Part shown: positions 4,502-17,790 of the stretch, in pieces
Numbering within the stretch: the first letter of the stretch is position 1
Layout of the letters: every line of letters starts with the position of its first letter
From: Mycobacterium leprae TN
Lineage (GTDB): Bacteria; Actinomycetota; Actinomycetes; Mycobacteriales; Mycobacteriaceae
Assembly: GCF_000195855.1 (NCBI RefSeq)
Contig: NC_002677.1
Span: 2,490,001 to 2,522,000 of the forward strand
DNA length: 32,000 nt
Reading direction: 5' to 3'
Notes under the pieces: generated by a model
The model's database searches: none
Told to the model about the DNA's origin: nothing
Seen by the model: the letters and a program-made list of their open reading frames with translations, nothing else
Program-made: the position numbers and the translations under genes

Positions 4502-5782
4502 TTGTTCGTTAACCTCACTTGCCTATCGGAGGGTAATGGATCGAGGGGTAAAGCGTTGGCAGAGAGCACCCAGGCCGAGCTTAAAACGAGCTGGTATTTG
4601 CTCGGACCAGCTTTCGTCGCCGCGATCGCCTACGTCGATCCCGGAAATGTGGCAGCCAACGTCAGCTCCGGCGCACAATTCGGCTATCTGCAACTGTGGG
4701 TGGTCGTCGTGGCCAATGTGCTGGCCGGCCTGGTGCAGTACCTGTCAGCGAAGCTTGGGCTAGTGACCGGACAGTCACTTCCCCAGGCAATCAGCAAGCA
4801 AATGAGTCATCCGTTCCGACTGGGCTTTTGGTTGCAGGCCGAACTGGTAGCGATGGCAACCGATGTTGCTGAAATCGTAGGCGGGGCCATCGCCTTCCAC
4901 ATCTTGTTTAGAGTATCATTGCTGCTCGGCGGGGTGATCACTGGGACGGTGTCGTTGCTGCTACTGATGGTGAAGGACCGTCGAGGCCAACTCTTGTTCG
5001 AGCGCGTCATCACTGGACTGCTGTTTGTCATTGTCGTCGGCTTCACGTCCAGTTTCTTCGTCGCGACGCCCTCACCCGAAGACATGGTAAACGGCCTACT
5101 GCCGCGCTTCCAGGGAACCGAAAGCGTACTGCTGGCCGCCGCTATCATAGGCGCCACCGTGATGCCGCACGCGGTGTACCTGCATTCCGGTCTTGCCCTG
5201 GACCGGCACGGACACCCCCACGCGGGCCGTAGCCGGCGTCGACTACTCCGCGTCACCCGCTTGGACGTCATCCTGGCGATGACGATCGCCGGAATCGTGA
5301 ATACGGCGATGCTACTAGTGGCCGCGATCAACCTGCAGCATCATCAGGTAACCGCTTACATCGAGGGCACTTACACCGCCATACAGGACACCTTGGGAGC
5401 GACGATCGCGATGCTGTTTGCGATCGGGTTACTCGCCTCCAGTTTGGCATCCGCATCGGTGGGCGCCTATGCCGGTGCCTTGATCATGCAAGGATTGCTA
5501 CAGCGGTCCATTCCCATGCTGATACGGCGCTTGATCACATTGTGCCCCGCGATCGCGATCCTGGCGCTCGGTTTCGACCCCACTCGCGCATTGGTGCTAT
5601 CCCAGATAGTACTGTCCTTCGGTATACCGTTCGCGGTGCTTCCACTGGTCAAACTGACCAACAACCGCGGACTGATGGGTAACGATACCAACCATCCCGC
5701 CACAACTGTTCTCGGCTGGGCCGTCGCGATATTGGTTAGTCTGCTTAACGTGGTGCTGATCTACCTGACCGTGACCAGTTAA
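4502..5782 (+). CDS. mntH: NRAMP-family divalent metal (Mn2+/Fe2+) : H+ symporter MntH
   Basis: Intact 426-aa ORF. The only in-frame start after the upstream TAG is TTG at 4502. The NRAMP signature GPAFVAAIAYVDPGNVAANV, MPHAVYLHS and about 11 hydrophobic helices are present. Confidence 0.9.
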   Translation: MFVNLTCLSEGNGSRGKALAESTQAELKTSWYLLGPAFVAAIAYVDPGNVAANVSSGAQFGYLQLWVVVVANVLAGLVQYLSAKLGLVTGQSLPQAISKQMSHPFRLGFWLQAELVAMATDVAEIVGGAIAFHILFRVSLLLGGVITGTVSLLLLMVKDRRGQLLFERVITGLLFVIVVGFTSSFFVATPSPEDMVNGLLPRFQGTESVLLAAAIIGATVMPHAVYLHSGLALDRHGHPHAGRSRRRLLRVTRLDVILAMTIAGIVNTAMLLVAAINLQHHQVTAYIEGTYTAIQDTLGATIAMLFAIGLLASSLASASVGAYAGALIMQGLLQRSIPMLIRRLITLCPAIAILALGFDPTRALVLSQIVLSFGIPFAVLPLVKLTNNRGLMGNDTNHPATTVLGWAVAILVSLLNVVLIYLTVTS

Positions 5783-5875
5783 ATGCCGGCCGGCATACGT
5801 ATCTCGCATATGGCCGAACCTGTGCGTAAGGAAGATGACACCGAACAGCTCGACAGCAGGTAGACGCGCTAAACC

Positions 5876-6560
5876 TTACCGGTTCAGGAGTTGACCAGGC
5901 AATGTGTGCCGTTGCATTCGACGGAGCGCAGGAACGCGTCGGTGACTCTGACCGACAGGTTGAAAAAGAAAGCTCACTGTGTCTTTACATTTTGATGGTA
6001 ACGAAGTAATAAATATCCGAATGTGATTACGTCGAGGACCGCCATGCATGCACCGTGGCAACGACCACCGATCGAAACCACATATGCCGCCATGTTAAAC
6101 AGTTAAAGGTAAAGAATTCGGCACCCTCGCGGTGCCGGCTGTAGTGGGACACTCGATCCTCGACGGGTCACAGGTAAACAAAAGTGTAACCAACGCCCCC
6201 GCAAGTGCGTTGGATCCCGACAGCATGTCCAAGAATCATGAAGATCGAGTGCAGCTAATTTTCCACAGGCAGAGCCAAACATACAGAGAGCAGGCCGATG
6301 TTGGTGCCCGCGTTCATCAGCATGGGCGAGTTCGGCAGAAATTCAAGATCGCGCAGCAGCGCCGAGAAGCGCTCTGCCCACCACACCGAGGTGACACTCT
6401 GGTCCCCATCCTTGGCACCCGTGGCGAAGGACGCCACTTAGTCCATTATCTCTACCAATCGACTCGGTCGACCTAACGTGCTCGTCGCACAGGAGATAAT
6501 CGTTTCTACGGTACCACCACTGCATACAGGCCCAGTTTCAGCTCGTCACACACCCCGAAC
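5876..6560 (-). pseudogene. nrdZ: Class II (B12-dependent) ribonucleotide reductase pseudogene, N-terminal third only, 3'-truncated
   Basis: Minus-strand fragments read YLLCDEH..., WAERFSALLRDLEFLPNSPMLMNAGTNIGLLSVCLALPVE, SIFMILGHAVGIQRTCGGVGYTF and SHSDIYYFVT. These correspond to the RNR motifs FLPNSPTLMNAG, LSACFVLP, GGGxGxxFS and HPDI. They are split across frames with stops. No further RNR sequence lies between 5876 and the mntH stop. Confidence 0.7.
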
Positions 6561-6873
6561 AGGGCTTTTGCCATGCGCAACTCGCTGCGCCGCTACTGAT
6601 AGATGATCTAGACCCGAACGATGTAGTCCAGGTTGGATTCGCCGAACCCACACCTCAACAAAATCCTGAATACGTTTAATGAGTAAAATTGAGGACTCCA
6701 GCGCATAAGCAACAGCCCGGACTAGCGTGGCCGGCATGTAGAGGCCGTCATAACCCACCTAGCTGCTGGCGCGCGACCGTTGCCTCAATCCGTCTGACGT
6801 TGCAGCGAGGGAGTACCCGATCGCGGCACCGGACCGGCACCAGCCACACCGATTTCATCGGCTCCGAAAACGC

Positions 6874-7149
6874 CTACTTGCTCTTATCGTGGGAGAGGGC
6901 TGGCTGCACAGCATCGAAACCGATGTTGGGCACGCTCGTCGGTGTCCTTCTGCTCCGCAACCGTGACGACGACCGCGTCGACGCTAGGAACAACGATCCC
7001 CTCATGGTCGGTGGCTAGACATACGAGACATACGGTAATACCCATCTGGGAAGTGAACCGCCGGTAATCAGTCCCCGGTGGTCTGGTTGATCGATTGTGG
7101 TGCCCTTGATCACCAACCAGTCACCGCCCTTTACCTCCAGGCGATTCAT
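6874..7149 (-). pseudogene. DUF1918-family small protein pseudogene (homologue of the gene preceding nrdZ in M. tuberculosis)
   Basis: ATG at 7149 gives MNRLEVKGGDWLVIKGTTIDQPDHRGLI. A frameshift leads to ATDHEGIVVPSVDAVVVTVAEQKDTDERAQHRF, and another shift leads to DAVQPALSHDKSK followed by a stop. At least two frameshifts fall within about 90 codons. Confidence 0.7.
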
Positions 7150-7159
7150 CCTTATCTTC

Positions 7160-8630
7160 GGGAATTCCATTGTTCATGCGTTCGACCCGTCAGCGGAAAG
7201 GGTATAACAGTAACCACCTTAGATGACCAAAGATCCGTCGCTGTCTCGGCTGAGAGTACACGATGGGGGTTGATCTTTGAGCTCGATCGCGCTACGAACG
7301 ATCGCTGATCACGACGCTACCCTGGACGGTGCGGCATGTTCCTAGGCCCCAGGCAACATTCCCCAAACCACGTATCTTTTCCACGAGCCGGATGGGGTAC
7401 ACCATCGCGAGACACGCTAATGTGCCCGGACATACTCAGTTTATCATCTGGCCGCAGCATCGGCATCAGCCAATCAGCGAAGCTTTCCACATCCCCGCAC
7501 AGCATTTTAGCCGGTGAGCTCAACGCCCGCGAAAATTTATTCGCTGATATCTGCGGCCACGGAAAGACGGACATGACCCACCCTAACGTATGCGCTGTAG
7601 GTTAGCTGCGGCATCGATGGCTCAAACGTGGTTAACACCACATCCTATTGGGCTGCTGACGAAGCAATCACCCGAGATGTGGTTTTTCCTTAGATGTAGC
7701 AGCCGCCGACATCGCGGCTATCCACTCGAGCGAGCATTTCAGGCTGCAGATCGCAAGGCTGAACCACCGCCGCGGTGACGCCTGTAGCCGCCGCGGCGGA
7801 CAAGCCAGTCAAGATCGAAACCGACATTGTCGGAGCGCTACCGTGGCTAGCGTCAATTAACGAATCGTCTGCGGCAGAGATGCTATGCGTGGGGTCACTC
7901 GAATTAAGGCGCGCAGGCGACGTGCCAGGACCGACGGCAACAAAGACAGCAGATGGCGAATGGACTGCTATCAGCACTGAATAGTTCACTTGATAGCGAC
8001 TTCAGCATTAAAAACAAGTTCCTCGAATACAAACCTGTACCTCACCCCGATCTTGGTACTCAGGGCCAGGACAGAACCCGTTCAATTGGGCTGCATCGGT
8101 AGCGGCCAAATCGCTTCGCCAATGCGACCTTGTACCGCCGCAACCATATCAGTTGTTGACTTGTGTTCGGTGCTGATGGTGCACCACTAAACCGAGCTGA
8201 AGTCCTAAAAGACGCTGCTGAGGAAATCAGCATAGGATCACAACGACACCGATTCCAACATAGTCAAGTTGCTCGACCAGCGTCACAGTGTCGGTACCGG
8301 CCCCGATGCGGACCGGTACCGACACTGTTAAGCGCGGCCAGCATCATCATATCGTGGATCACCGATCAAGCTTACCGATGTGATTGCGTTGTGGTTCAAC
8401 GAATGTTGTCACTCTATATGGCGCTGTTGTGCGCTGGCATCGCTTGTAAGTCGTCTACGCACCCAAACGACGCGATCATGCTCGGGCTGTGGCTGTGTGC
8501 GATAGTGACTTCTAACCCCTTCGAGAAGGGACACTTACGAACGCCGACGCCCAGGCCGTCCGGCACTCGTCTGCCTTGCTTAATAGTCAATTTCAATTCT
8601 GAACTCCATAACAAGGTAACAAGCACAGGC
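7160..8630 (-). pseudogene. Cytochrome P450 pseudogene
   Basis: The minus strand carries a degenerate haem-binding region (DTWFGECCLGPRNM versus FGGGxRxCxG), an I-helix-like stretch (ILTGLSAAAATGVTAAVV) and an N-terminal proline-rich hinge (RRVPDGLGVG). Many stops and frameshifts are present. The length matches a roughly 470-aa P450. Confidence 0.5.
8285..8328. repeat. Perfect 16-bp inverted repeat with 12-nt spacer (hairpin-forming)
   Basis: ACAGTGTCGGTACCGG (8285-8300) and CCGGTACCGACACTGT (8313-8328) are exact reverse complements. The element lies inside the P450 pseudogene. Confidence 0.85.
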
Positions 8631-8659: not shown

Positions 8660-9950
8660 GCGGTGTCCACAGGGCGACTGACGGCGATTCGCTTGCTCTA
8701 TCCGCAGTTTCGCCAGCTTGTTTCCGGAACGTCAACTCAACGGTAGCGAGCTGTCGTTATACCTGGACGGCACACCGGTTGTTGACGGGTGGACCAGATG
8801 GGCCAATAGTCGTGGCAGCATGCCGTGGTCGACTGACATGGGCACGATGGTGATTTCCGTAACCAAGGGCTTGGCATCCCTAGTCATCCATCGGCTTGTC
8901 GACCGAAGGATGTACTTGCCTACGATATACCGGTCGCCGAATAGTGGCCCGTGTTCGGCGCGAACGGCAAATCAGCCAGCACCCATTGGCTACAGGATAC
9001 GGCGCCGGACCGGGCTGTCCCACTTGGGCGGGGGAAATACCACCAACTTGATGTACCACCACCTTATGAAAGGCTGAACTGGCGGCAGCGACGCCAGAAC
9101 GGCCGCTGGATAAGACAACCCTACCATGCCTTGACCTAAGGATGGTTGATTTTCGAGTTGGTGCGCGCAGTCAAGAGCAAGGAAAGGCGCGAGCTGATCC
9201 GAGTGGAGCTGACCCAGTCACTGAACACCAACAGACTGCATCTGGGCCGGCCACCAGCCGACGCGCCGACCCACACAGCACAGATCATCACCCCGCAGAA
9301 CACCAAAACAAACCCACTGTTGAACTTCGTGGCACCGAAAATCGCCGTCTTCTCGTTCTCGGCCACTTCCGGGGATAGGTACTTTCCACCATGCACGCTT
9401 TGTCCAAGAAGATATTATGGCACAATACGTGCAAGATCAGCAGCTAATGAGGTGTGCACCATATGTGCGCTGGCACGCGTCTATGGTGTGATCACCAACA
9501 GGGGATAGCTCGACGGAATACAATAAAAATATACTGTCTTAATTGTCACCCGGGCGGGTGGCCGGCTTAACCGGCAGGCCCAGCCTGCAACCCGACCACA
9601 ACTTTTTCCTACCGCTGGCCTGCCACGTGAGATATCACGCGGTGCCCATATCCATGGAGCATTGCCCGGATTCGATCACACCCAGCATAGGCGGGCCAAA
9701 TAGGATGAACCGGTCCGGCAAAGCCGAATCGCATTCGGCTTTGCCGGACCGGCCACCAACCCCTATGATCTTCGACCATGCTACCTTCACCGGGCTTGGC
9801 ACACTGCTACACCGCCGTAGCCCAAAAGGGCGACTATGAACAAGCCACTCCCACCTCATAGGATACCACTAAAACATAGGATCATCCATAGAGGGTCACG
9901 GCCGGGATAGCCCCCATGACGGTGCCGTTTCTGGCACTTGCTGCGGCTTG
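8660..9950 (+). pseudogene. Serine esterase / class C beta-lactamase-family (Lip-like) pseudogene
   Basis: LYLDGTPVVDGW...PWSTDMGTMVISVTKGLASLVIHRLVDRR contains the SxxK motif. LHLGRPPAD follows in another frame, and ALARVYGVITNRG is followed by a stop and then LDG. Multiple frameshifts are present. Confidence 0.6.
9710..9752. repeat. Perfect 43-bp palindrome (20-bp stem, 3-nt loop)
   Basis: CCGGTCCGGCAAAGCCGAAT cgc ATTCGGCTTTGCCGGACCGG. The arms are exact reverse complements and no U-tract follows. The element lies inside the esterase pseudogene. Confidence 0.9.
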
Positions 9951-10251
9951 GACGTACCTACGGCGATTTTTTGGTCAATAGCAGCTCAAACTACGGGTGG
10001 AAAATGCGGAGGTACAGGGCCCAGATAACCAAAGCCGAGGAAGACGGCGGTTGCACCCCGGGAGCCAGGCATCGGCCCGGGATGGCTTTAACTGAACGGC
10101 GCAGTAGTTTTTAGCCACGTACACGACGAATGCCCACAGCCCGGAAAGTATGTTCCGCGCTCCCTAACCCCAGTGTGGCGGGCTGCACCGTGCAGCTCCT
10201 TTCACCCTTTGATGCCACAGCTTTGGATCTATCGGCCTGCGAGCAGGGGGA

Positions 10252-11645
10252 TCAGCCCTTTCACCATACCCAGGAAATAAAGCGGACGACCCTGCGAGCT
10301 AGCCCGGCGAGGTGGCTGGTTTCGATGACAGCGTCGATGCCCTTATAGTCCTAGGGTCTTCCCTGCGGAACTTGCCACGCACGAGTATGCCATCCTCCCC
10401 GAGGCTTCTGCTCAACACCTCGGCGTTGGTGTTACGGCCGATTCAGTGGCGGCTTTGCACTCTGCCGGCGCTGCGTGCGGTGAAAAGAAAGCGGGATTGT
10501 ACGGTGCACCGGCCAGCCCTTACGAGACGGTGTCCATCGGTCCGGGGATAAGCACCGATTTAGCCGACCACGGCCAGTTCAGCCGGCACATCGGGATGTT
10601 ACAGCCGGTAGCGAGCCGGCAACACCCTTGCGATGCACGCATAGGGTGTGTATCTGGCCGTCGACGGGGTGCTCTTCGCAGTTTGGCTCGGCTGTACGAT
10701 GCATTATAAAACAAGTCCAGCAAGGTCGTGGTTTGCTTGTCGAACACCCGACGAGTCGCTTCGGTGAACAGCTGACGGTTGGCGCGTCCGTAGTTGGCCA
10801 CCGCGGCCAGGCAGACAAACTTGGCCTTTGGGTGAGCGGACGGACACGCACGCCAACTGAGGGTCTTGTACTTGAATACTGCAACTGTCCAAGGCAGTTT
10901 GCCATCTGGTGTACGTTATCGGTACAGATCTGGTGGCCCGAGCCGCGTGAGCAGGTACGGATCATGCCGCACGCGGTGCCTGAGGGGAGACCTATCTGTG
11001 TGGTGGTGTCGTAACACGCTTTCCACGTCCTGCACTTCCAAGATACAGCTGCCCGAATTCAGGTAGCCAATCTGCTCAAGCCTTCGTTCGATCACTCGCT
11101 AACTAACCGCCGCCGCGTCGGTCCCCATGAGCACGTCGCCGTCCTCGCAACGCTACAAGTCACGCGCAACACCGTGTCCCTGTTGCACCACAAACTTGGC
11201 GCCGTCGATGAAAATATCCTCCAGCACAGCGCAGTTGGACAACAGCCACACGCCATTGGTGCCCAAACCGCACGGTATCGCGACATCGAGGCGCGGTGTC
11301 GAGGTGGTCCAATCATCACGCGGATCTTTGGTGGCAGCCGCTGGCGATCCAGGCTACTGACTAAACGCCTTACCCAGCAAGAGATGTCAAAGCCAACCCC
11401 ACCGGGGGAGACAACTCCGACGGCGTCGATATCGGTTACGGCCACACCGCCAGTCGAAAACCCATAGCCCCAATGCACGTCCGGCATCGCATACGACGCC
11501 CGAACAATCCTGGGCAGCGTGGGTCCCCACAGTGGCCACCTGAACCAGCACCATATCGGCCCTCGGACAACAGTAACCTGATCCCAGGCACCCGGACAGC
11601 TTGTTCGATCCGGAACCGGTCTAGAGTCTCCTCGACGATTTGCAT
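10252..11645 (-). pseudogene. rtcB: RNA ligase RtcB pseudogene
   Basis: Minus-strand fragments read [19 protein letters not shown]...[31 protein letters not shown] and the C-terminal YKGIDAVIETSHLAGLARRVV. They are separated by frameshifts and stops, including a TGA two codons before the presumed original stop. Confidence 0.75.
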
Positions 11646-12005
11646 ACGAATGATCCCCTCACTCAACACATCCAATGTCACCACACACCGCAGGCCATGC
11701 TCGGCGTACGAGAAGCGAACATCGTTGACCGACAACATCTTCAGCAAAGAACAGATCTGATGCAGTGTCGTTGCATCAACCATCAAAAGTTAGCGTCGAC
11801 GGCGCTGTCTGCACCGTTCGGATTGACATCAACCGGCACCTCACGCTTACTATCCAGCAAAGTAAATTACCTCATCCAGCACCGCTGCCAGCAGATCGTC
11901 GTCCCGGTCGGTAGTCAGCCGGCTTAGGCGGGTATGGCGCGGCTTAATCTACGAGGAATCCAGGAAACTTTCTACCGTGACGAGCACAGCCTCCCTGATA
12001 CAGCC
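11646..12005 (-). pseudogene. Archease-like pseudogene (RtcB activator), 5'-truncated at the repeat boundary
   Basis: It lies immediately upstream of rtcB on the same strand. The fragments DRDDDLLAAVLDEVIY, VPVDVNPNGADSAVDANF and AEHGLRCVVTLDV resemble the archease core and C-terminus. The N-terminal roughly 25 codons are missing where the 422-bp repeat begins. Confidence 0.45.
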
Positions 12006-12427
12006 ATCACGTGTCCAACGAATGCCCACGCCTCGATCCGCAGCACACTACGATGCCCTGATGGCTGCTCTGCCAACGCTTTGCGTGGGTTTGTTCTAGG
12101 AATTTGCGGTGCGCCACCCGGCTCAGGTGATCAGTGAACCGGTCGCGGGGCAAACACCGCGACCCACTCGAGGGTGCCTGGTTCTTCGAAGAGGTGGGTG
12201 GAGCTGGGAAACCACGACGATTTCGTGCGTGCCAGGTATCACCGACCCCGCCCGACGATTCAGACTTCACCATATCAGCTCACAACCTAGCAGCGTGGGT
12301 GAGCGAACCTTGGTCAAGACCTAGCCTAGCCAGGTCAGGTCACCCGCCGCGCTACACCACCGCCGCTACCCTCACGGCGGGGATCGGCCACGACGGCCAG
12401 CGCAGCACCTGCCCCGGTGCTCGCACC
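12006..12427 (-). repeat. Inverted-repeat copy A (422 bp, 100 percent identical to the reverse complement of 14357-14778)
   Basis: I verified the identity base by base against copy B. The minus strand carries the same decayed hydrolase C-terminus (GASTGAGAALAVVADP...STHLFEEPGTLEWVA) plus 125 bp of its 3' flank. It is not contiguous with the upstream part of that gene. Confidence 0.95.
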
Positions 12428-13215
12428 TCATGGCCTAAAATCGGATCCCTAAAGCACCGAAGCTGTGTTGACATCGCTGTCTCGTTTATGCGTCAGCACT
12501 TTTGCGGCAACATCCCGCAACGACAAATCGCGGATCAACCACACCACGGGCCAGTCGTAGCGTGTAGCTCATAGAGTCCGGAACGCCAGCTGACTTCATC
12601 GCCACTGAGCCGACGAGTACATGTCGTTTACCGTGAGCGCTGACCATAGCAGGGGAGCATGCGGCGGGCAGGTCAGCTACCGCCCTGACACCCTGGATCT
12701 ACACCGTGGTGAAAGTCACTACAGTGTCAGTCAACCCCTGGTAGCCGAAGTCCAGAATGTGGTTGTTGGCTAGGACACACATTCGGCCGTAACGCCGCCA
12801 GTCAAGTTATCCGCGTGCATTCGATAACAGGACTTTTTGTACTCGAACAGACCTTTTCGTACTCTACAAATTCACCGCCAGCGGTGATCGTTGTCTCCAG
12901 GTTGACCCTGCCGCGCATCGGGGGCAGCCGCATCGAGGAGCCCCAGCATCTCGCCCCAGGGTTAATGCCAATCCACCGGGCACGGAATCGACCGGTTCAC
13001 GTGCTCGACCAACCGAACGTATCCTCAAGCAAAACGCATGATGCAGCTCACGTAACTCCGTTTTGCCAGAATATGGTAGGATATGATCAAACATTTCGCC
13101 CAAGCATCACATCACCGCCCAGTAGCACCGTAACCGCATCTTTTAGGGTTATCCGAAGCTCCTCGACAATTGACCCGGTTTCCATCCCGTCGACGTTAGT
13201 AGAGTCGGCGACTGC
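12428..13215 (-). pseudogene. CapA / PGA-synthesis-family metallophosphatase pseudogene, 3'-truncated at repeat copy A
   Basis: The minus strand reads DAVTVLLGGDVMLGRNV then a stop, followed by RVNLETTIT. LAALRPNVCPSQQPHSGLRLPGVD corresponds to the family's aGfdvvslANNHxxDxG region. Several stops and shifts are present, and only about 260 of about 380 codons remain. Confidence 0.55.
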
Positions 13216-13367
13216 CGGTTAGGAAGCTTTGGTCCCCACCGCAGTGGCCTTACGGGCCTTCGGAGGGCGGACCCGTCACACCCACACTACAAGGAATGAC
13301 AGAACGGACCGGTAGCAACGATAGCGGGCGTCCGTTGGCTTGGCGGCTGGCTTCATTGCGCAACAGT

Positions 13368-14072
13368 ATGAGGTTGTTCGACGATCGTGTCGACGCTGGA
13401 CGGCACCTTGCCGAACGCTTGGAGTCGTTGCGCGGCAAGGACATGGTTGTGCTAGGCCTGCCCCGGGGCGGGGTACCAGTGGCTTTCGAGGTCGCCAAGG
13501 CGCTGCGGGCGCCGCTGGACGTCCTGGTAGTGCGCAAGCTGGGGGTACCATTTCAGCCCGAATTGGCTTTCGGCGCCATCGGTGAGGGCGGTGTGCGGGT
13601 GACCAACGACTCCGTGGTGGCCGAAGCCGACCTGTCACAGGACGAGATGGCCGCCATCGAAACGGAGCAACGTGCGGAACTAATGCGTCGTTCGGAACGG
13701 TTCCACCGCAGGCACGACCGCGCCCCGATCGGGGGGCGGATCGCGGTGATCGTCGACGACGGCATCGCAACCGGCGCGACCGCCAAGGCCTCCTGCCAGG
13801 TGGCCCGCGCCCAGGGCGTCAGCAAGGTGGTGCTGGCAGTTCCTATCGGCGGACGCGATATCTTCGCACGATTCGCCGGATACGCCGACGAGGTGGTCTG
13901 CCTACACACACCTGCGTTCTTCTGCGCCGTGGGCCAGGGATATTGCAATTTCACCCAGACGTCCGACGCTGAGGTGATCGCGCTGCTCGATCGCGCTCGG
14001 GAAGGCTTTGGCGAGTCTGCGACCACCGCCACACTCGGCGACCCACAGATACGTGACGAGGAGGTTTGGTGA
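13368..14072 (+). CDS. Phosphoribosyltransferase-domain protein: the surviving N-terminal domain of a two-domain PRTase-hydrolase gene
   Basis: The open frame runs 13296-14072, and ATG 13368 (MRLFDDRVDAGRHLAERL) is the likely start. The PRPP-binding loop VIVDDGIATGATAKA is intact, as is VLGLPRGGVPVA. The frame ends at a stop where homologues continue into a hydrolase domain. Whether the truncated product is functional is unknown. Confidence 0.55.
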   Translation: MRLFDDRVDAGRHLAERLESLRGKDMVVLGLPRGGVPVAFEVAKALRAPLDVLVVRKLGVPFQPELAFGAIGEGGVRVTNDSVVAEADLSQDEMAAIETEQRAELMRRSERFHRRHDRAPIGGRIAVIVDDGIATGATAKASCQVARAQGVSKVVLAVPIGGRDIFARFAGYADEVVCLHTPAFFCAVGQGYCNFTQTSDAEVIALLDRAREGFGESATTATLGDPQIRDEEVW

Positions 14073-14653
14073 GCGCCGGACCGGTAGTTGGTGGCCGGAT
14101 ATCTGACAATTCCGGAGTATCCGATCAGTTACGTAGTTTTCGCCCACGGCAATGGCAGCAGCTCCCGCAACCACTATAAGTATCCGAGGTCTTGAATACA
14201 GCAGGTTTGCCACCCTGCTGTTCGATCTGCTCACCCCTGACGAGGAGCGCGACCGCGCCAACGTCTTTGATGTCGAATTACTGGAGCGACGGTTGAGTAG
14301 ATATCACCGGCTGGCTAGACAGCCCGATACCGCGACACTTCTGGTTCGGCTACTTCGGTGCGAGCACCGGGGCAGGTGCTGCGCTGGCCGTCGTGGCCGA
14401 TCCCCGCCGTGAGGGTAGCGGCGGTGGTGTAGCGCGGCGGGTGACCTGACCTGGCTAGGCTAGGTCTTGACCAAGGTTCGCTCACCCACGCTGCTAGGTT
14501 GTGAGCTGATATGGTGAAGTCTGAATCGTCGGGCGGGGTCGGTGATACCTGGCACGCACGAAATCGTCGTGGTTTCCCAGCTCCACCCACCTCTTCGAAG
14601 AACCAGGCACCCTCGAGTGGGTCGCGGTGTTTGCCCCGCGACCGGTTCACTGA
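14073..14653 (+). pseudogene. Decayed dienelactone-hydrolase-like C-terminal domain of the PRTase gene
   Basis: Domain pieces lie in three frames: GYLTIPEYPISYVVFAHGNGSS, FATLLFDLLTPDEERDRANVFDVELL, GYFGASTGAGAALAVVADP and STHLFEEPGTLEWVA. Several stops interrupt them. From 14357 onward this sequence is repeat copy B. Confidence 0.65.
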
Positions 14654-14778
14654 TCACCTGAGCCGGGTGGCGCACCGCAAATTCCTAGAACAAACCCACG
14701 CAAAGCGTTGGCAGAGCAGCCATCAGGGCATCGTAGTGTGCTGCGGATCGAGGCGTGGGCATTCGTTGGACACGTGAT
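14357..14778 (+). repeat. Inverted-repeat copy B (native copy, contiguous with the PRTase-hydrolase gene)
   Basis: It is the exact reverse complement of 12006-12427. The coding context GYF|GASTG runs uninterrupted across its inner boundary, so this copy sits in its original gene context. Confidence 0.95.
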
Positions 14779-15232
14779 AAATACCGTGTCGTCGTCGACC
14801 GTCTCGGCATGGCCGCAACTATGCATAACCAGGTAGAGCCATCCCGGACCGAGGGGCCACTTGCAACATCCGCACTGTGGGTCGGCGGCCATGGCTTCTT
14901 CTCTACCCGGCCTCACCATCACGGCCACCGGTCCGAGCCCGGGAATTCCCATTAGAGCGCGCAGACATGCGGGCAGCTAGATGTGGAGTGCCTCAAAGGT
15001 GACGATACGGCCCGTCTGCCACAGACTCTAACAGCTTGTCAGAGGTGTGCGCGCCGAGCGCCAAAATCGCCATCAAACCCTTCCGCTCCGAAATGTCCAG
15101 ATCAAGCCGGTAACCGGCGACCGAACGGGCGGCCTTTCCATACCAGCGCACCCGGTATGGATCGCCGCCAGAGATGGCAATCAGATCGGCCAAATCATGC
15201 AGAGCAACGGCCGCAGTTTAATTCGAACGCAT
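14779..15232 (-). pseudogene. PolX-type helix-hairpin-helix protein pseudogene fragment, 3'-truncated at repeat copy B
   Basis: ATG at 15232 is followed by an in-frame TAA at codon 5. The sequence then reads AVALHDLADLIAISGGDPYRVRWYGKAARSVA (PolX N-terminal 8-kDa-domain pattern) and IPGLGPVA (HhH motif). No PHP or polymerase core follows. Confidence 0.5.
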
Positions 15233-15879: not shown

Positions 15880-16230
15880 ACATAGAATTCCGTTACTACA
15901 CCACATTGCAGCATGCTTTCCACCACCCACAACAACAGGGTCGTCCTCGACGTCGACACGGTGTCCAGTGAGCGCTGGCTACTGCAACGCATTCCGCGGC
16001 GACCACATCGACCACGCCATGACTTTCGGTCTGACTGTGCTCTCACCCTTACACGACAGCACCCGCAAGCCCGTGACCTCTGATCGGCTCTAACTGCGCC
16101 TGCGGCGCGGTCCGCAAACTGGTGGAACCACGATGGACGCATCTGCTAACGACAAATCCGCGACACCGCGAAACGCATCTATAACTCCGCCCAGGCACCA
16201 AGACCTATTCGCACAGCAATGCCGATAGGG
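15880..16230 (+). pseudogene. HNH endonuclease (mycobacterial DUF222 / 13E12-repeat-type) pseudogene, C-terminal part
   Basis: CPVSAGYCNAFRGDHIDHAMTF resembles the CxxxGCxxxxxxCDIDH HNH core. An in-frame TAA lies at 16091-16093. It is followed by TGGTT.DAS.ND..ATPRNASITPP, resembling the conserved W..Q..DGT..WT.PTGR.Y..P tail. Confidence 0.4.
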
Positions 16231-16600
16231 CGAAGAAAGTGAAAGCGTCAACAACACGCTCGATCCGATCGCACCTCCTACGTTGAACGGACGATCGCCT
16301 GCAACGCAGTTAGCCAGCCGACTCTCCTTTGTCCACAACGCAATATCGGCGTACCTAACACCGTCGACAACAACCGAAGAGCGAGCCTCCTTACACTGGC
16401 CACCATGCTAAGCACATACCACGCACGCGCAAAGCGTCGCGGAGCTATAAGCGTGCACACTACACTCACACCTGCCACACACCGACGAACTAACAGGGGC
16501 CGATCGCGAGGAACGGCGCCAGGACGCCAAGAACACCACTGAAGACCGTCCACAACCTCCAATCGGCTAGAGTTTTAGCCACGTAATCAGAACATCCCTG

Positions 16601-16673
16601 GCCCTCGTAGCTCAGGGGATAGAGCACGGCTCTCCTAAAGCCGGTGTCACAGGTTCGAATCCTGTCGGGGGCA
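16601..16673 (+). tRNA. tRNA-Arg (anticodon CCU)
   Basis: 73 nt folds into a full cloverleaf: acceptor GCCCUCG/CGGGGGC, D arm GCUC/GAGC, anticodon stem CGGCU/AGCCG with loop CUCCUAA, T arm ACAGG-UUCGAAU-CCUGU and discriminator A. CCA is not encoded. Confidence 0.95.
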
Positions 16674-16976
16674 CTTGTCCGGCACGCAGGATTCACGTAG
16701 ATGAACGCTATTTTCAGACACCCATCTACTGGATTCGGCTTGCTCTGTTCTGATCGTGCAGTAGCCGGTTATAGTTCGGTGCCAGGTTACCCAGCCTGAC
16801 ACCGATAGTCAATCGCGCCATAAGCTCGAGTCGAGAAGCAAAATCGTCCAGATCTGGTCGCCGCTGAGTCGCACCTAGAAAGTCGAGCACGCCATCGAAC
16901 ACAGTGGTGATTTATGCCCAAACGCCAGCCGCTACCAAAGCCAACCCACACCCGTCGCCGTAGCCCTGCCACGTTT

Positions 16977-17500
16977 TCATCGAAAGTCCTTAGCCGACGA
17001 GCGCGCGTCTTTCATCAACAGCATCAGGTACAACAGATCGGTCGGAGAGGCCTCGAACTCGAAGTAGGCGTAGAACGCGTGGACCTCATCGTGTAGCACA
17101 CACACACAAGAATCGCCCACATCCCCCCGATTGAGTCCGTGGCCTGGGACACAGCGACCGATCGCATCACGCAGCCAGATGGCTACCCAGGACCCCGCCC
17201 TGTTATTTGTTTACGATCAACTGCCAACCTCGACAGCAGGATCACCGGAACCGGTTCAAGCATATCGCTATACATCCTTCCCGGAGCATTAGCACACGCA
17301 CCAGACCCTGACACTAAGCATAGAAGCCGACCATCCGACCGTTGCGGCACATCACGAAACAGCGCAACCCGACCTGGGACATGGTTGGCAAACCCCCGAT
17401 TGCGCAAGTAACCGTCCCAGATTGGGCTTCCCACTACTAAAGTTCGCGACGTCATCGGCGCCGTTGATCAGTCGCGGCACACTATAGCCGCTCACACCTA
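16977..17500 (-). pseudogene. GNAT acetyltransferase toxin (TacT-type) pseudogene
   Basis: Minus-strand pieces read DDVANFSSGKPNL, YLRNRGFANHVPGR, VPVILLSRLAVDRKQITGRG (acetyl-CoA loop RLAVD..QGxGxG) and the C-terminal DEVHAFYAYFEFEASPTDLLYLMLLMKD. They lie in three frames with stops. Confidence 0.65.
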
Positions 17501-17790
17501 GGTGTCGAAAATGGACCATTCGGCAAAATCGCTTCTCTAACCGAGGCTTGTGTAAGACGAATCGGTCCAACACGGCCAGGAACTCAGTCCACACGGCGTC
17601 GGGGAGCACGAAGAGTCGGCGGTCGGCCTATAACAACGTCGCGCGCGTGCGCCAACACCAAGGTAATTGTGAAATTGGTGAAGTCAATCCCCTCAACCTC
17701 AGCGGCACAACGAATCACCGCGTCCTGCTTAGAGTTCAGAAGCGCTGCAAGACGCTCAGGCCTTGGTAAGACCTTCTCTATTGAGCACCT
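17500..17790 (-). pseudogene. DUF1778 (TacA-type) antitoxin pseudogene
   Basis: ERLAALLNSKQDAVIRCAAEVEGIDFTNFTITLVLAHARDVV shows the RHH antitoxin pattern. A frameshift leads into ADRRLFVLPDAVWTEFLAVLDRFVLHKPRLEKRF, the DUF1778 C-terminal pattern. It lies directly upstream of the GNAT toxin remnant. Confidence 0.55.

Follow-up and report, generated by a model that had tools for sequence, protein, structure and literature searches.

The palindromes of the sex chromosomes (human and primate Y and X) consist of inverted arms around a unique spacer, and recurrent intrachromosomal conversion homogenizes the arms. In bacteria, tufA and tufB of Salmonella and E. coli, as well as rRNA operons, are inverted homologous segments that are homogenized by RecA-dependent gene conversion; if the outcome is a crossover, the interval is inverted. 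The esx and PE/PPE genes of Mycobacterium tuberculosis show patchy, bidirectional conversion tracts between paralogs, and Uplekar and colleagues reportedly described gene conversion among mycobacterial paralogs in 2011. The genus is not known to have MutS/MutL mismatch repair. For a frozen, clonal genome in decay, Mycobacterium leprae is the classic example; its repeats are generally masked and receive no attention.

Here we describe a locus in M. leprae with two inverted arms, which are very probably two homologous 3' gene ends of long standing, kept identical by recurrent intrachromosomal gene conversion (concerted evolution). This is a known kind of process, and the locus is a new, clean case of it. 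In literature searches, we found no discussion of this repeat or of gene conversion in M. leprae; the only trace of the repeat that we found is a pair of coordinates in Table S3A of a paper on M. lepromatosis (PMC9248898).

Like the Y and X palindromes, the locus has inverted arms, a unique spacer, and an arm-to-arm identity that is far above the between-species identity. Unlike them, its arms are just 0.4 kb long (compared to 10 kb to megabases), they contain pseudogene debris instead of genes, the host is a bacterium, and we detected no significant GC bias. The locus resembles tufA/tufB and the rRNA operons in having two inverted homologous segments on one chromosome that are homogenized. 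However, those genes are essential and selected, and their identity might partly reflect selection, whereas the arms described here are neutral; also, the interval is 1.9 kb instead of hundreds of kilobases. As with esx and PE/PPE, the conversion tracts appear to be patchy, bidirectional, and between paralogs, and the genus is the same. But conversion in esx and PE/PPE diversifies expressed antigens and is seen between strains, while here a non-functional pair seems to have been homogenized completely, as seen between species.

The window (the whole 32-kb stretch of M. leprae DNA that we analyzed) contains a perfect inverted repeat, with arms at 12006-12427 and 14357-14778. A repeat search and a direct string comparison agree that the arms are 422 nt each and 100% complementary, with 0 mismatches, as the first-pass annotation had claimed from the sequence alone. 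The spacer between them is 1,929 nt. The edges of the arms are sharp: by string comparison, identity drops to random at once, outside and inside both edges. There is no other long repeat in the 32-kb window. Both arms match the final ~110 codons of an alpha/beta-hydrolase domain, which belongs to a fusion gene that joins a phosphoribosyltransferase (PRTase) to a hydrolase (tblastn, with intact homologues as queries). The first-pass annotation had described the content as a C-terminal hydrolase pseudogene plus 3' flank, and tblastn agrees, with a flank of ~126 nt. We see no evident function for the repeat itself.

The features of the locus are as follows. U1 and U2 are the outer flanks of arm A and arm B, U2p is a small conserved gene, and type 1 and type 2 refer to similarity to the type-1 relatives (L014 and L015) or to the type-2 relative (L022) from other mycobacteria.

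10071 to 10163, plus strand: remnant of a second U2p-like small conserved gene, beyond RtcB; with it, the left block has the full L022-type gene order; the remnant is clearer in M. lepromatosis (L013, at 7091-7309).
10255 to 12097, minus strand: RtcB pseudogene (~10255-11645) and archease pseudogene (~11667-12097), by tblastn; 77-78% nucleotide identity to L022, whose open reading frames match the Archease and RtcB families of Pfam.
12006 to 12427, minus strand: arm A, with the last ~110 codons of the hydrolase-domain pseudogene, a stop, an intergenic stretch, and the first archease codons; tblastn places the hydrolase C-terminus at 12326-12112, and the arm is collinear with hydrolase and then archease in L022.
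12427 to 12428, no strand: rearrangement or deletion junction, where the hydrolase gene, cut at about codon 340, is joined to PGA_cap, cut at about codon 278; at the same position within 1 nt in M. lepromatosis.
12428 to 14356, no strand: unique spacer of 1,929 nt, with the PGA_cap remnant, the intact PRTase open reading frame, and the portion of the hydrolase pseudogene that is not repeated; the type-1 locus in other mycobacteria (L014-L017) is collinear with it.
12440 to 13240, minus strand: remnant of a PGA_cap (CapA-like) pseudogene; tblastn covers residues 16-278 of 423, and the intact L014 homologue matches PF09587.
13296 to 14072, plus strand: intact PRTase open reading frame of 258 amino acids (UniProt Q50111; PF00156).
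14073 to 14356, plus strand: non-repeated part of the frameshifted hydrolase-domain pseudogene, of type-1 ancestry (closest to L014/L015).
14357 to 14778, plus strand: arm B, with the 3' end of the PRTase-hydrolase pseudogene, a stop at ~14650-14652, and then 126 nt of downstream sequence.
14462 to 14567, plus strand: patch of type-2 ancestry in arm B, mirrored in arm A at 12217-12322.
14731 to 14778, plus strand: outer 48 nt of arm B, mirrored at 12006-12053; identical between the arms in M. leprae only.
14761 to 14928, minus strand: remnant of U2p, the gene located after PRTase-hydrolase in type-1 loci; the 3' end of the remnant extends into arm B.

The archease and RtcB pseudogenes directly follow the hydrolase remnant of arm A on the minus strand, and the 5' end of archease lies inside arm A. 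The PGA_cap remnant lacks roughly its last 145 codons and is cut at the 12428 junction. Positions 12443-14899 of the window are collinear with 9161-11638 of L014. The PRTase gene is the only intact gene within a ~13-kb gene desert and the sole working gene of the repeat unit. It is 93.4% identical to its M. lepromatosis counterpart at the nucleotide level, with no gaps and the same stop codon, and it is under purifying selection (dN/dS of 0.29, with dS of 0.147, between the two species). When we searched the 32-kb window with Rfam, the only match was a tRNA-Arg, and none was in the arms. Separately, a small inversion between the two leprosy species lies 3 kb from the unit and is also flanked by inverted repeats.

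The repeat is also present in separate samples. In separate public read runs (Logan), 12 M. leprae contigs (L001-L010 and L056) agree with the window at 99.95-100% identity, and they start or stop either at an arm edge or ~30-43 nt inward of it. L001 and L002 begin exactly at 12006 and cross the entire arm; L056 spans from 19244 to exactly 14357, which crosses the arm from the U2 side; and L003-L005 consist of the spacer extended by a k-mer overhang. None of these 12 contigs has a break in the interior of an arm of the kind that exposes arm-specific variants. A contig from a second lineage of M. lepromatosis (L012, 99.81% identical to strain FJ924) ends 30 nt inside that species' 380-nt repeat.

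The first-pass annotation had suggested a comparison with M. lepromatosis at this locus, and this yielded an orthologous 380-nt repeat with 100% arm identity. In M. lepromatosis FJ924 (L013), the arms are at 8785-9164 and 11062-11441, they are 100% complementary, the spacer is 1,897 nt, and the locus is collinear with the window. The inner arm edges of the two species coincide within 1 nt, the junction between U1 and arm A is common to both, and the flanking pseudogenes are collinear. Since the same repeat, junctions, and flanks are found in M. lepromatosis, sequence comparison shows that the repeat pair is older than the split of the two species, ~14 million years ago.

Within each species, the arms are 100% identical, but between species, the arm core is just 85.4-85.7% identical (54 substitutions and 4-5 indels in 371 nt). 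The unique segments have similar values: 85.2% for U1, 82.7% for S_L, and 83.7% for U2. Between species, the arms have accumulated changes at the neutral rate, like the pseudogenes that flank them, including indels that shift the frame and stop codons, yet every change in the arms since the split is now in both arms of the species that bears it. If the arms had been independent since the split, we would expect ~68 differences between them in M. leprae and ~61 in M. lepromatosis; the probabilities of observing none are 2e-30 and 2e-27, respectively. Because the arms evolve neutrally, selection cannot account for their identity, and conversion alone must. By our calculation, the last complete homogenization fell within the final ~4.4-4.9% of the divergence time in both lineages.

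Zero divergence could instead be a sign of youth, that is, of a very recent inverted duplication in M. leprae. The first-pass annotation had offered this along with ongoing gene conversion between the arms, and both the perfect identity of the arms and the near-clonality of M. leprae strains would fit. However, both arms are also found in M. lepromatosis, where the inner junction and the flanks match, and they differ from the M. leprae arms by 54 substitutions as well as indels; it is not credible that duplication happened twice, independently, and produced identical junctions. Nor does the M. lepromatosis locus seem to be misassembled, as the contig from the second lineage breaks at the same boundary. 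These observations refute a recent duplication, to which we give practically no weight, and conversion is the one of the two proposals that accounts for 100% identity within species and ~85% between them. It is similarly hard to believe that the identity is an artefact, with arms that really differ and whose reads were merged into one consensus. Although short-read assemblies often collapse short repeats, arm-specific variants would split the k=31 assembly graphs within the arm, and the breaks are only at the arm edges; L001, L002, and L056 cross a whole arm at 100% identity; and the same pattern is seen in two species that were sequenced by different methods.

The conversion process itself is inferred from the phylogenetic pattern, and the outer 48 nt suggest its direction. 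In M. lepromatosis, these 48 nt lie outside the repeat and differ between the arms: they are archease-type beside arm A and x/U2-type beside arm B, and x/U2-type sequence is also found at that place in the outgroups L011, L014, L015, and L022. In M. leprae, both arms bear the same archease/U2 hybrid: 14731-14760 is archease-type and 14761-14778 is U2-type, with GTGGGC at 14755-14760 being common to both sequence types. In the M. leprae lineage, further conversion tracts appear to have carried the archease-type patch from arm A to arm B and the U2-type patch from arm B to arm A. These transfers extended the perfect repeat outward by 48 nt, from 380 nt (374 in M. leprae numbering) to 422 nt. As for GC-biased conversion, the arms have 63% GC, compared to 56-59% in adjacent unique pseudogene DNA, and part of this gap is ancestral; the polarized counts of GC-to-AT and AT-to-GC changes in the arms are not significantly different from those in the adjacent unique hydrolase segment (p = 0.2 and 0.77).

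The arms do not behave like an insertion sequence, a composite transposon, or a MITE. We found no transposase gene or remnant within or between them: all of 10071-14928 maps to homologues of RtcB, archease, hydrolase, PGA_cap, PRTase, or U2p. The outer ends, with flanks ...GATACAGCC| and |AAATACCGT..., show no direct repeat that would be a target-site duplication. In M. lepromatosis, a whole-genome self-BLASTN listed exactly two copies of 380 nt each, at 2971838-2972217 and 2974115-2974494, with the class "other" (Table S3A of PMC9248898); these are exactly the L013 arms. This count is genome-wide for M. lepromatosis, and the two copies in M. leprae are those in the 32-kb window. Hence the earlier statement that the repeat is not an obvious insertion sequence stands. 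The repeat does resemble RLEP/RLPM, REPLEP, LEPREP, and LEPRPT in being repeated, non-coding, near-identical within a species, and diverged between species (copies of RLPM resemble one another at 99.2-100%; PMC9248898). Unlike those families, it is a local, two-copy pair that derives from the end of a cellular gene, and the M. lepromatosis catalogue places it outside all four of them (PMC9248898).

Where did arm A come from? The first-pass annotation took the repeat to derive from the gene's own 3' end, with arm A as the secondary copy. Three observations argue against this: arm A runs into archease and RtcB, the junction at 12427|12428 truncates two genes, and the arms are mosaics. Instead, these features make arm A look like the 3' stump of a second paralog, which it probably is. 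U1 plus arm A form a single alignment (77% identity) to the hydrolase 3' end, archease, and RtcB of L022, and the order of hydrolase, archease, and RtcB on the outer side of arm A matches that of other mycobacteria. To type the ancestry of each segment, we used informative sites, where the type-1 relatives (L014 and L015, in agreement) differ from the type-2 relative (L022); this typing relies on few outgroup genomes, several of which are metagenome-assembled. The ratio of type-1 to type-2 sites is 98:23 in the unique part of the gene but 21:37 in the arms (Fisher's exact test, p = 7e-9; p = 7e-11 for M. lepromatosis). Along the arm, ancestry alternates: 1:24 at 14462-14567, 11:3 at 14568-14700, and then 0:6. 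The patch at 14462-14567 is 85.7% identical to L022, compared to 55-58% for L014/L015. In a neighbor-joining tree of the PRTase domain (computed without support values), both leprosy species nest with the loci that lack archease (L011, L014, and L015). L011 is a metagenome contig that is 82% identical to the window; we considered whether it might be M. lepromatosis, but it is an outgroup with its own deletion in the hydrolase, and we used it for the junction between arm B and U2. We also tried to derive the observed order (reverse-complemented RtcB-archease, reverse-complemented 3' end, spacer, 3' end, U2) from either ancestral arrangement by a single inversion with staggered breaks or by simple insertion of an inverted copy, and neither reproduces it.

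We consider it likely that two ancestral loci, of type 1 and type 2, were joined by a deletion or rearrangement and then blended by conversion. In the ancestor, the PRTase-alpha/beta-hydrolase fusion gene would have existed as two paralogs at separate loci: type 1, with PGA_cap (minus strand), the gene, and U2p (minus strand), followed at some distance by tRNA-Arg; and type 2, with the gene, archease, RtcB, and a U2p-like gene. During reductive evolution, a deletion or rearrangement may have fused what was left of the type-2 gene, its 3' stump, to the truncated PGA_cap in a head-on, inverted arrangement, so that the stump would lie 1.9 kb upstream of the type-1 gene's own 3' terminus. Bidirectional conversion tracts could then have merged the two 3' ends into one mosaic. 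However, the first conversions would have been between sequences that were perhaps only 70-77% identical (as for L014 and L022), which is a poor substrate for homologous recombination.

This difficulty does not arise if the arms were identical at birth, which would make them an easy substrate for conversion. In such a scenario, an ancient inverted duplication arose from one L022-like locus (PGA_cap, the gene, archease, RtcB, x, and U2p), and conversion then maintained the identity: an inverted copy of the 3' end, with archease and RtcB, was placed upstream, and the original site lost archease and RtcB. This could have come about by an inversion and re-inversion with staggered breaks, or by a tandem-inversion duplication with deletions. 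L022 has hydrolase, archease, RtcB, x, and U2p in series on one molecule, so the outer contexts of both arms can derive from one locus, and the outer end of the 380-nt repeat of M. lepromatosis coincides with the archease/x junction. Also, the archease-RtcB deletion junction beside arm B of M. lepromatosis is close to that of L011 and L014, but that they are the same is not provable, which leaves room for a single ancestral locus and a multi-step rearrangement. Still, that junction resembles an old deletion that is common to L011, L014, and L015. A single locus does not readily explain why ancestry switches within the gene, with the PRTase and the unique hydrolase segment grouping with L011/L014/L015 while the patch at 14462-14567 and U1 group with L022, or why the left block contains, past RtcB, another U2p-like remnant that is strongly diverged. 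At least three events would be needed as well. We therefore view a single-locus origin as rather unlikely and favor two paralogs.

Reciprocal exchange between the arms could possibly invert the spacer (12428-14356), and it had been pointed out earlier that the geometry permits this; by symmetry, the PRTase open reading frame would face an arm in either orientation. The reference genomes of both species show the same orientation, which is the ancestral one; among the contigs that we examined, none runs through a whole arm and both of its flanks. Might the arms serve a programmed inversion of the 1.9-kb segment that alters the expression of the PRTase gene? The geometry allows inversion, the spacer contains the only intact gene of the ~13-kb desert, which is under purifying selection, and the small interspecies inversion 3 kb away is flanked by inverted repeats. 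The invertible switches hin, fimS, and the promoter switches of Bacteroides also have inverted repeats around a short segment that contains genes. But those switches have two orientations, while just the ancestral one is seen in both reference genomes here. Furthermore, we found no remnant of a recombinase or invertase in or beside the unit (tblastn accounts for all of 10071-14928), and the arms evolve neutrally and, at 380-422 nt compared to ~10-30 nt, are ~10 times longer than typical invertase sites. The divergent promoter region between PGA_cap and PRTase is probably inside the spacer, so it would flip along with the gene. A functional switch is thus very improbable.

More speculatively, the repeat may not have been born identical but may have been built during genome decay by homeologous conversion of paralog ends that were ~70-77% alike, without MutS/MutL, and the same activity may be ongoing, so that the spacer flips detectably in present-day M. 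leprae. We regard this as a tentative idea, less likely than not. If it is true, the locus is a natural, selection-free reporter of the recombination rate in an unculturable pathogen, and it could be read in modern and ancient genomes. In any case, the locus is a concrete target for testing spacer inversion.

In a genome that evolves slowly, perfect identity of a repeat is no reason to assume a recent duplication. The comparison of identity within and between species could also be applied to the other two-copy repeats of class "other" in the M. lepromatosis catalogue. More broadly, concerted evolution of the arms implies that intrachromosomal homologous recombination has stayed active in both leprosy bacilli through ~14 million years of reductive evolution, and at this locus, the evidence is free of confounding by selection. 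Conversion was frequent enough to leave no difference today between two 0.4-kb segments that drift neutrally, and its rate is bounded by the time of the last homogenization, which in each lineage lies in roughly the final 4-5% of the divergence time.

The two arms of the inverted repeat are each 422 nt long and 100% complementary across a 1,929-nt spacer, as repeat search and string comparison confirmed. Beyond their outer and inner edges, matching drops at once to the random level, and the 32-kb window contains no other long repeat. Contigs assembled from separate public read sets of M. leprae, 12 in all, are 99.95-100% identical to the window, and they end at the arm edges or one k-mer inside: L001 and L002 start at exactly 12006 and cross the entire arm, L003-L005 consist of the spacer with an overhang of 30-43 nt, and L056 spans 19244 to exactly 14357. 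None of these 12 contigs breaks within an arm, so the identity of the arms belongs to the organism and not to a single assembly.

Features of the repeat unit in M. leprae
12006-12427, minus strand: arm A
12428-14356: spacer
within the spacer, minus strand: PGA_cap (CapA-like) pseudogene
13296-14072, within the spacer: intact PRTase ORF, 258 aa (UniProt Q50111_MYCLR)
within the spacer: unrepeated portion of the hydrolase pseudogene
14357-14778, plus strand: arm B

Intact relatives of the spacer gene encode ~445-aa fusions of a PRTase (PF00156) and an alpha/beta-hydrolase, and hydrolase residues from ~340 to the end map onto both arms (by tblastn). Alignment to the intact L022, a relative (type 2) whose gene is linked to archease and RtcB, identifies the 126 nt past the stop as a short intergenic stretch and the first archease codons (M-A-E-Q-x-S-G-H-R...), which in M. 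leprae only are followed by 18 nt of other origin. The first-pass annotation was therefore correct that the repeat holds the hydrolase end and downstream DNA, but the flank is not anonymous.

A search of the PRTase protein against one genome per species led to the complete chromosome of M. lepromatosis FJ924 (L013, NZ_CP083405.1), whose copy of the locus runs collinear with the window between ~2.6 and 23.8 kb. Its arms, at 8785-9164 and 11062-11441, are 380 nt long and 100% complementary, with a spacer of 1,897 nt. In a four-way alignment, the inner edges agree within one base between the species, and the junction of arm A with its unique outer flank (U1) is the same in both, so the repeat arose once, before the species separated. 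Mass pseudogenisation has been estimated at ~14 My ago, shortly ahead of this bifurcation (PMC9248898). Another contig, L012 (Logan SRR31433760), differs from FJ924 by 17 mismatches in 8,814 nt (99.81% identity) and so comes from a distinct M. lepromatosis lineage; its stop 30 nt into the 380-nt repeat implies that the outer boundary is unchanged in that lineage.

Several kinds of element were ruled out. An IS, MITE or composite transposon would not account for the repeat, as there is no transposase remnant or target-site duplication; the description "not an obvious IS" holds. In a whole-genome self-BLAST of M. lepromatosis, exactly two 380-nt segments were reported (2971838-2972217 and 2974115-2974494), and these were classed as "other" rather than as RLPM, LPMREP, REPLPM or LPMRPT (PMC9248898). 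They are precisely the L013 arms, and within the 32-kb M. leprae window the two arms are the only copies, so on these counts the repeat is not a member of a dispersed family. An invertase switch was ruled out as well: there is no recombinase, and the arms are long and neutrally evolving.

Identity between M. leprae and M. lepromatosis
Arm core: 85.4-85.7% (54 substitutions and 4-5 indels in 371 nt)
U1, flank outside arm A: 85.2%
PGA_cap remnant: 82.7%
U2, flank outside arm B: 83.7%
PRTase ORF: 93.4%, no gaps

Between species, then, the arms have drifted as fast as the pseudogene DNA around them. If the arms had been independent since the split, ~68 arm-to-arm differences would be expected in M. 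leprae and ~61 in M. lepromatosis; there are none in either species (P = 2e-30 and 2e-27, respectively). Concerted evolution by gene conversion accounts for this identity. In each lineage, no more than about 4.4-4.9% of the divergence time can have passed since the arms were last completely homogenised, and a Poisson argument suggests that whole-arm conversion recurred several times per lineage, as a single event would not suffice. Of the explanations first offered, gene conversion between the arms is borne out, and a very recent inverted duplication is refuted, since M. lepromatosis shares the repeat and its junctions and the arms have drifted at the pseudogene rate while remaining identical to each other. 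We found no support for GC-biased conversion in the arms.

The outer edges bear traces of the tracts that were converted. Directly outside the 380-nt repeat of M. lepromatosis, the two sides differ over 48 nt. Beside arm A the archease codons go on, collinear with L022; beside arm B there is a spacer, x, and then a small conserved minus-strand gene, U2p, collinear with the archease-less relatives L011, L014 and L015 (the last two representing type 1) and also with L022 downstream of RtcB. Both M. leprae arms carry one hybrid, archease-type at 14731-14760 and then U2-type at 14761-14778, joined at GTGGGC (14755-14760), which is common to both sequence types. Hence an archease-type patch must have passed from arm A to arm B, at the cost of ~56 nt of x, and the U2-type 18 nt must have passed from arm B to arm A in place of archease codons. 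The B-to-A transfer is the weaker of the two inferences: it is suggested by 14 matches in 19, including an exact 6-nt ATTCGT that archease-type sequence lacks. Both transfers postdate the species split, and through them the perfect repeat grew to 422 nt from 374 nt (380 in M. lepromatosis numbering).

What is demonstrated is that the repeat is ancient, drifts neutrally, has been completely homogenised in two lineages and carries donor-specific patches. Conversion would be supplied by RecA-type homologous recombination, and M. leprae has kept recA. Conversion between diverged sequences would have been tolerated because mycobacteria are not known to have MutS/MutL mismatch repair.

A reciprocal crossover of the arms would invert 12428-14356. 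Both isomers have inner junctions that are alike by symmetry, so short-read contigs cannot separate the orientations. Both references have the orientation of the ancestral type-1 gene order, which is compatible with zero or an even number of inversions. Since the segment itself contains the divergent PGA_cap/PRTase promoter region, a flip would probably be inconsequential. Elsewhere, ~130-175 nt are inverted between the species (window 17456-17632; L013 14079-14280). A perfect 35-nt inverted repeat surrounds this segment in M. lepromatosis (L013 14084-14118 and 14246-14280), and one recognisable copy is left in M. leprae (~17627-17660). This looks like an inversion flanked by inverted repeats, or one with a breakpoint duplication, that was fixed since the split.

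Arm A had been taken for a secondary copy of the gene's own 3' end, and on this point the earlier interpretation, which was right about gene conversion and so half right overall, is not supported: context, junction, collinearity and mosaic ancestry all argue against it. U1 and arm A form one unbroken alignment, at 77% identity, with the L022 hydrolase 3' end, archease and RtcB, a contiguity also found in L027, L029, L031-L034, L046 and L051. A second, much decayed U2p-like remnant lies beyond RtcB (window 10071-10163; L013 7091-7309), so the L022 gene order is complete in the left block. The junction at 12427/12428 cuts two genes together, the hydrolase gene at ~codon 340 and PGA_cap at ~codon 278; this bears the mark of a deletion or rearrangement joint, which insertion of a copy would not leave. 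The right block (PGA_cap, the gene, x, U2p ... tRNA-Arg) is collinear with the archease-less loci L014-L020 and L025, and a neighbor-joining tree built on the PRTase domain places the leprosy species within these loci, beside L011, L014 and L015. For ancestry, we scored M. leprae at informative sites where L014 and L015 agree and differ from L022.

Type-1:type-2 sites in M. leprae
Gene outside the repeat: 98:23
Arms overall: 21:37 (Fisher p = 7e-9; M. lepromatosis, p = 7e-11)
14357-14461: 9:4
14462-14567: 1:24
14568-14700: 11:3
14701-14740: 0:6

The patch at 14462-14567 is 85.7% identical to L022 versus 55-58% to L014 and L015, and the switch of ancestry within the gene persists with alternative outgroups.

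On the simplest reading of these sequence comparisons, which is fairly probable, arm A is what remains of the 3' end of a second paralog linked to archease, altered by later two-way conversion. The stump would have been brought beside the first paralog, inverted, during genome reduction, and bidirectional conversion would then have merged both 3' ends. The chief rival to this origin is an inverted duplication, in several steps, from one L022-like locus. In its favour, a two-paralog origin needs its first conversions to occur between sequences only 70-77% identical, which is inefficient; also, the archease-RtcB deletion junctions of M. lepromatosis and L011/L014 are near-identical, and a single event is not provable. 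Against it stand the mosaic ancestry and the second U2p-like remnant beyond RtcB. Several mycobacterial genomes have two PRTase-hydrolase paralogs 4-12 kb apart, among them these pairs:

L031: 10004-11311 and 14371-15681
L051: 10019-11329 and 14230-15543
L034/L047

In these genomes, the copy adjoining archease-RtcB is the only one of the divergent "ARCH" type. Such nearby pairs could be the background for how two ends met in the leprosy ancestor.

Two neighbouring features bear on the flanking blocks. An nrdZ-like remnant (a class II ribonucleotide reductase homologue; 5842-7139) sits between an intact Nramp gene (4502-5782) and the RtcB remnant; it matches L033 at 15883-17193, and there is a weak Ribonuc_red_lgN match on the M. 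lepromatosis contig. In M. ostraviense the orientation relative to RtcB is different, suggesting further rearrangement of the left block. The tRNA-Arg (CCT) at 16601-16674 is 100% identical between species, in surroundings of ~84%, and marks the synteny of the right block with other mycobacteria.

M. leprae is famed for genomic stasis. Concerted evolution of inverted repeats is a well-known phenomenon, as in tuf genes, plastid inverted repeats and sex-chromosome palindromes; this case is unusually clean because it is free of selection. Table S3A of the M. lepromatosis study lists several other equal-length, two-copy "other" repeats, such as those of 915, 705, 1984, 2249, 1445, 1700, 1210, 1529, 1149 and 905 nt (PMC9248898), and these are candidates for the same process when compared with their M. 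leprae orthologues. As for the repeat itself, it looks like a by-product that serves no function. The PRTase ORF has a dN/dS of 0.29 (dS 0.147), and both species share the position of its stop codon, which is premature relative to the former fusion, whose hydrolase half has decayed. Apparently, the PRTase domain was kept as a stand-alone gene within a ~13-kb stretch of pseudogenes: it is this remnant of the fusion gene, reduced to the PRTase and conserved in the two leprosy species, that forms the functional element of the unit.
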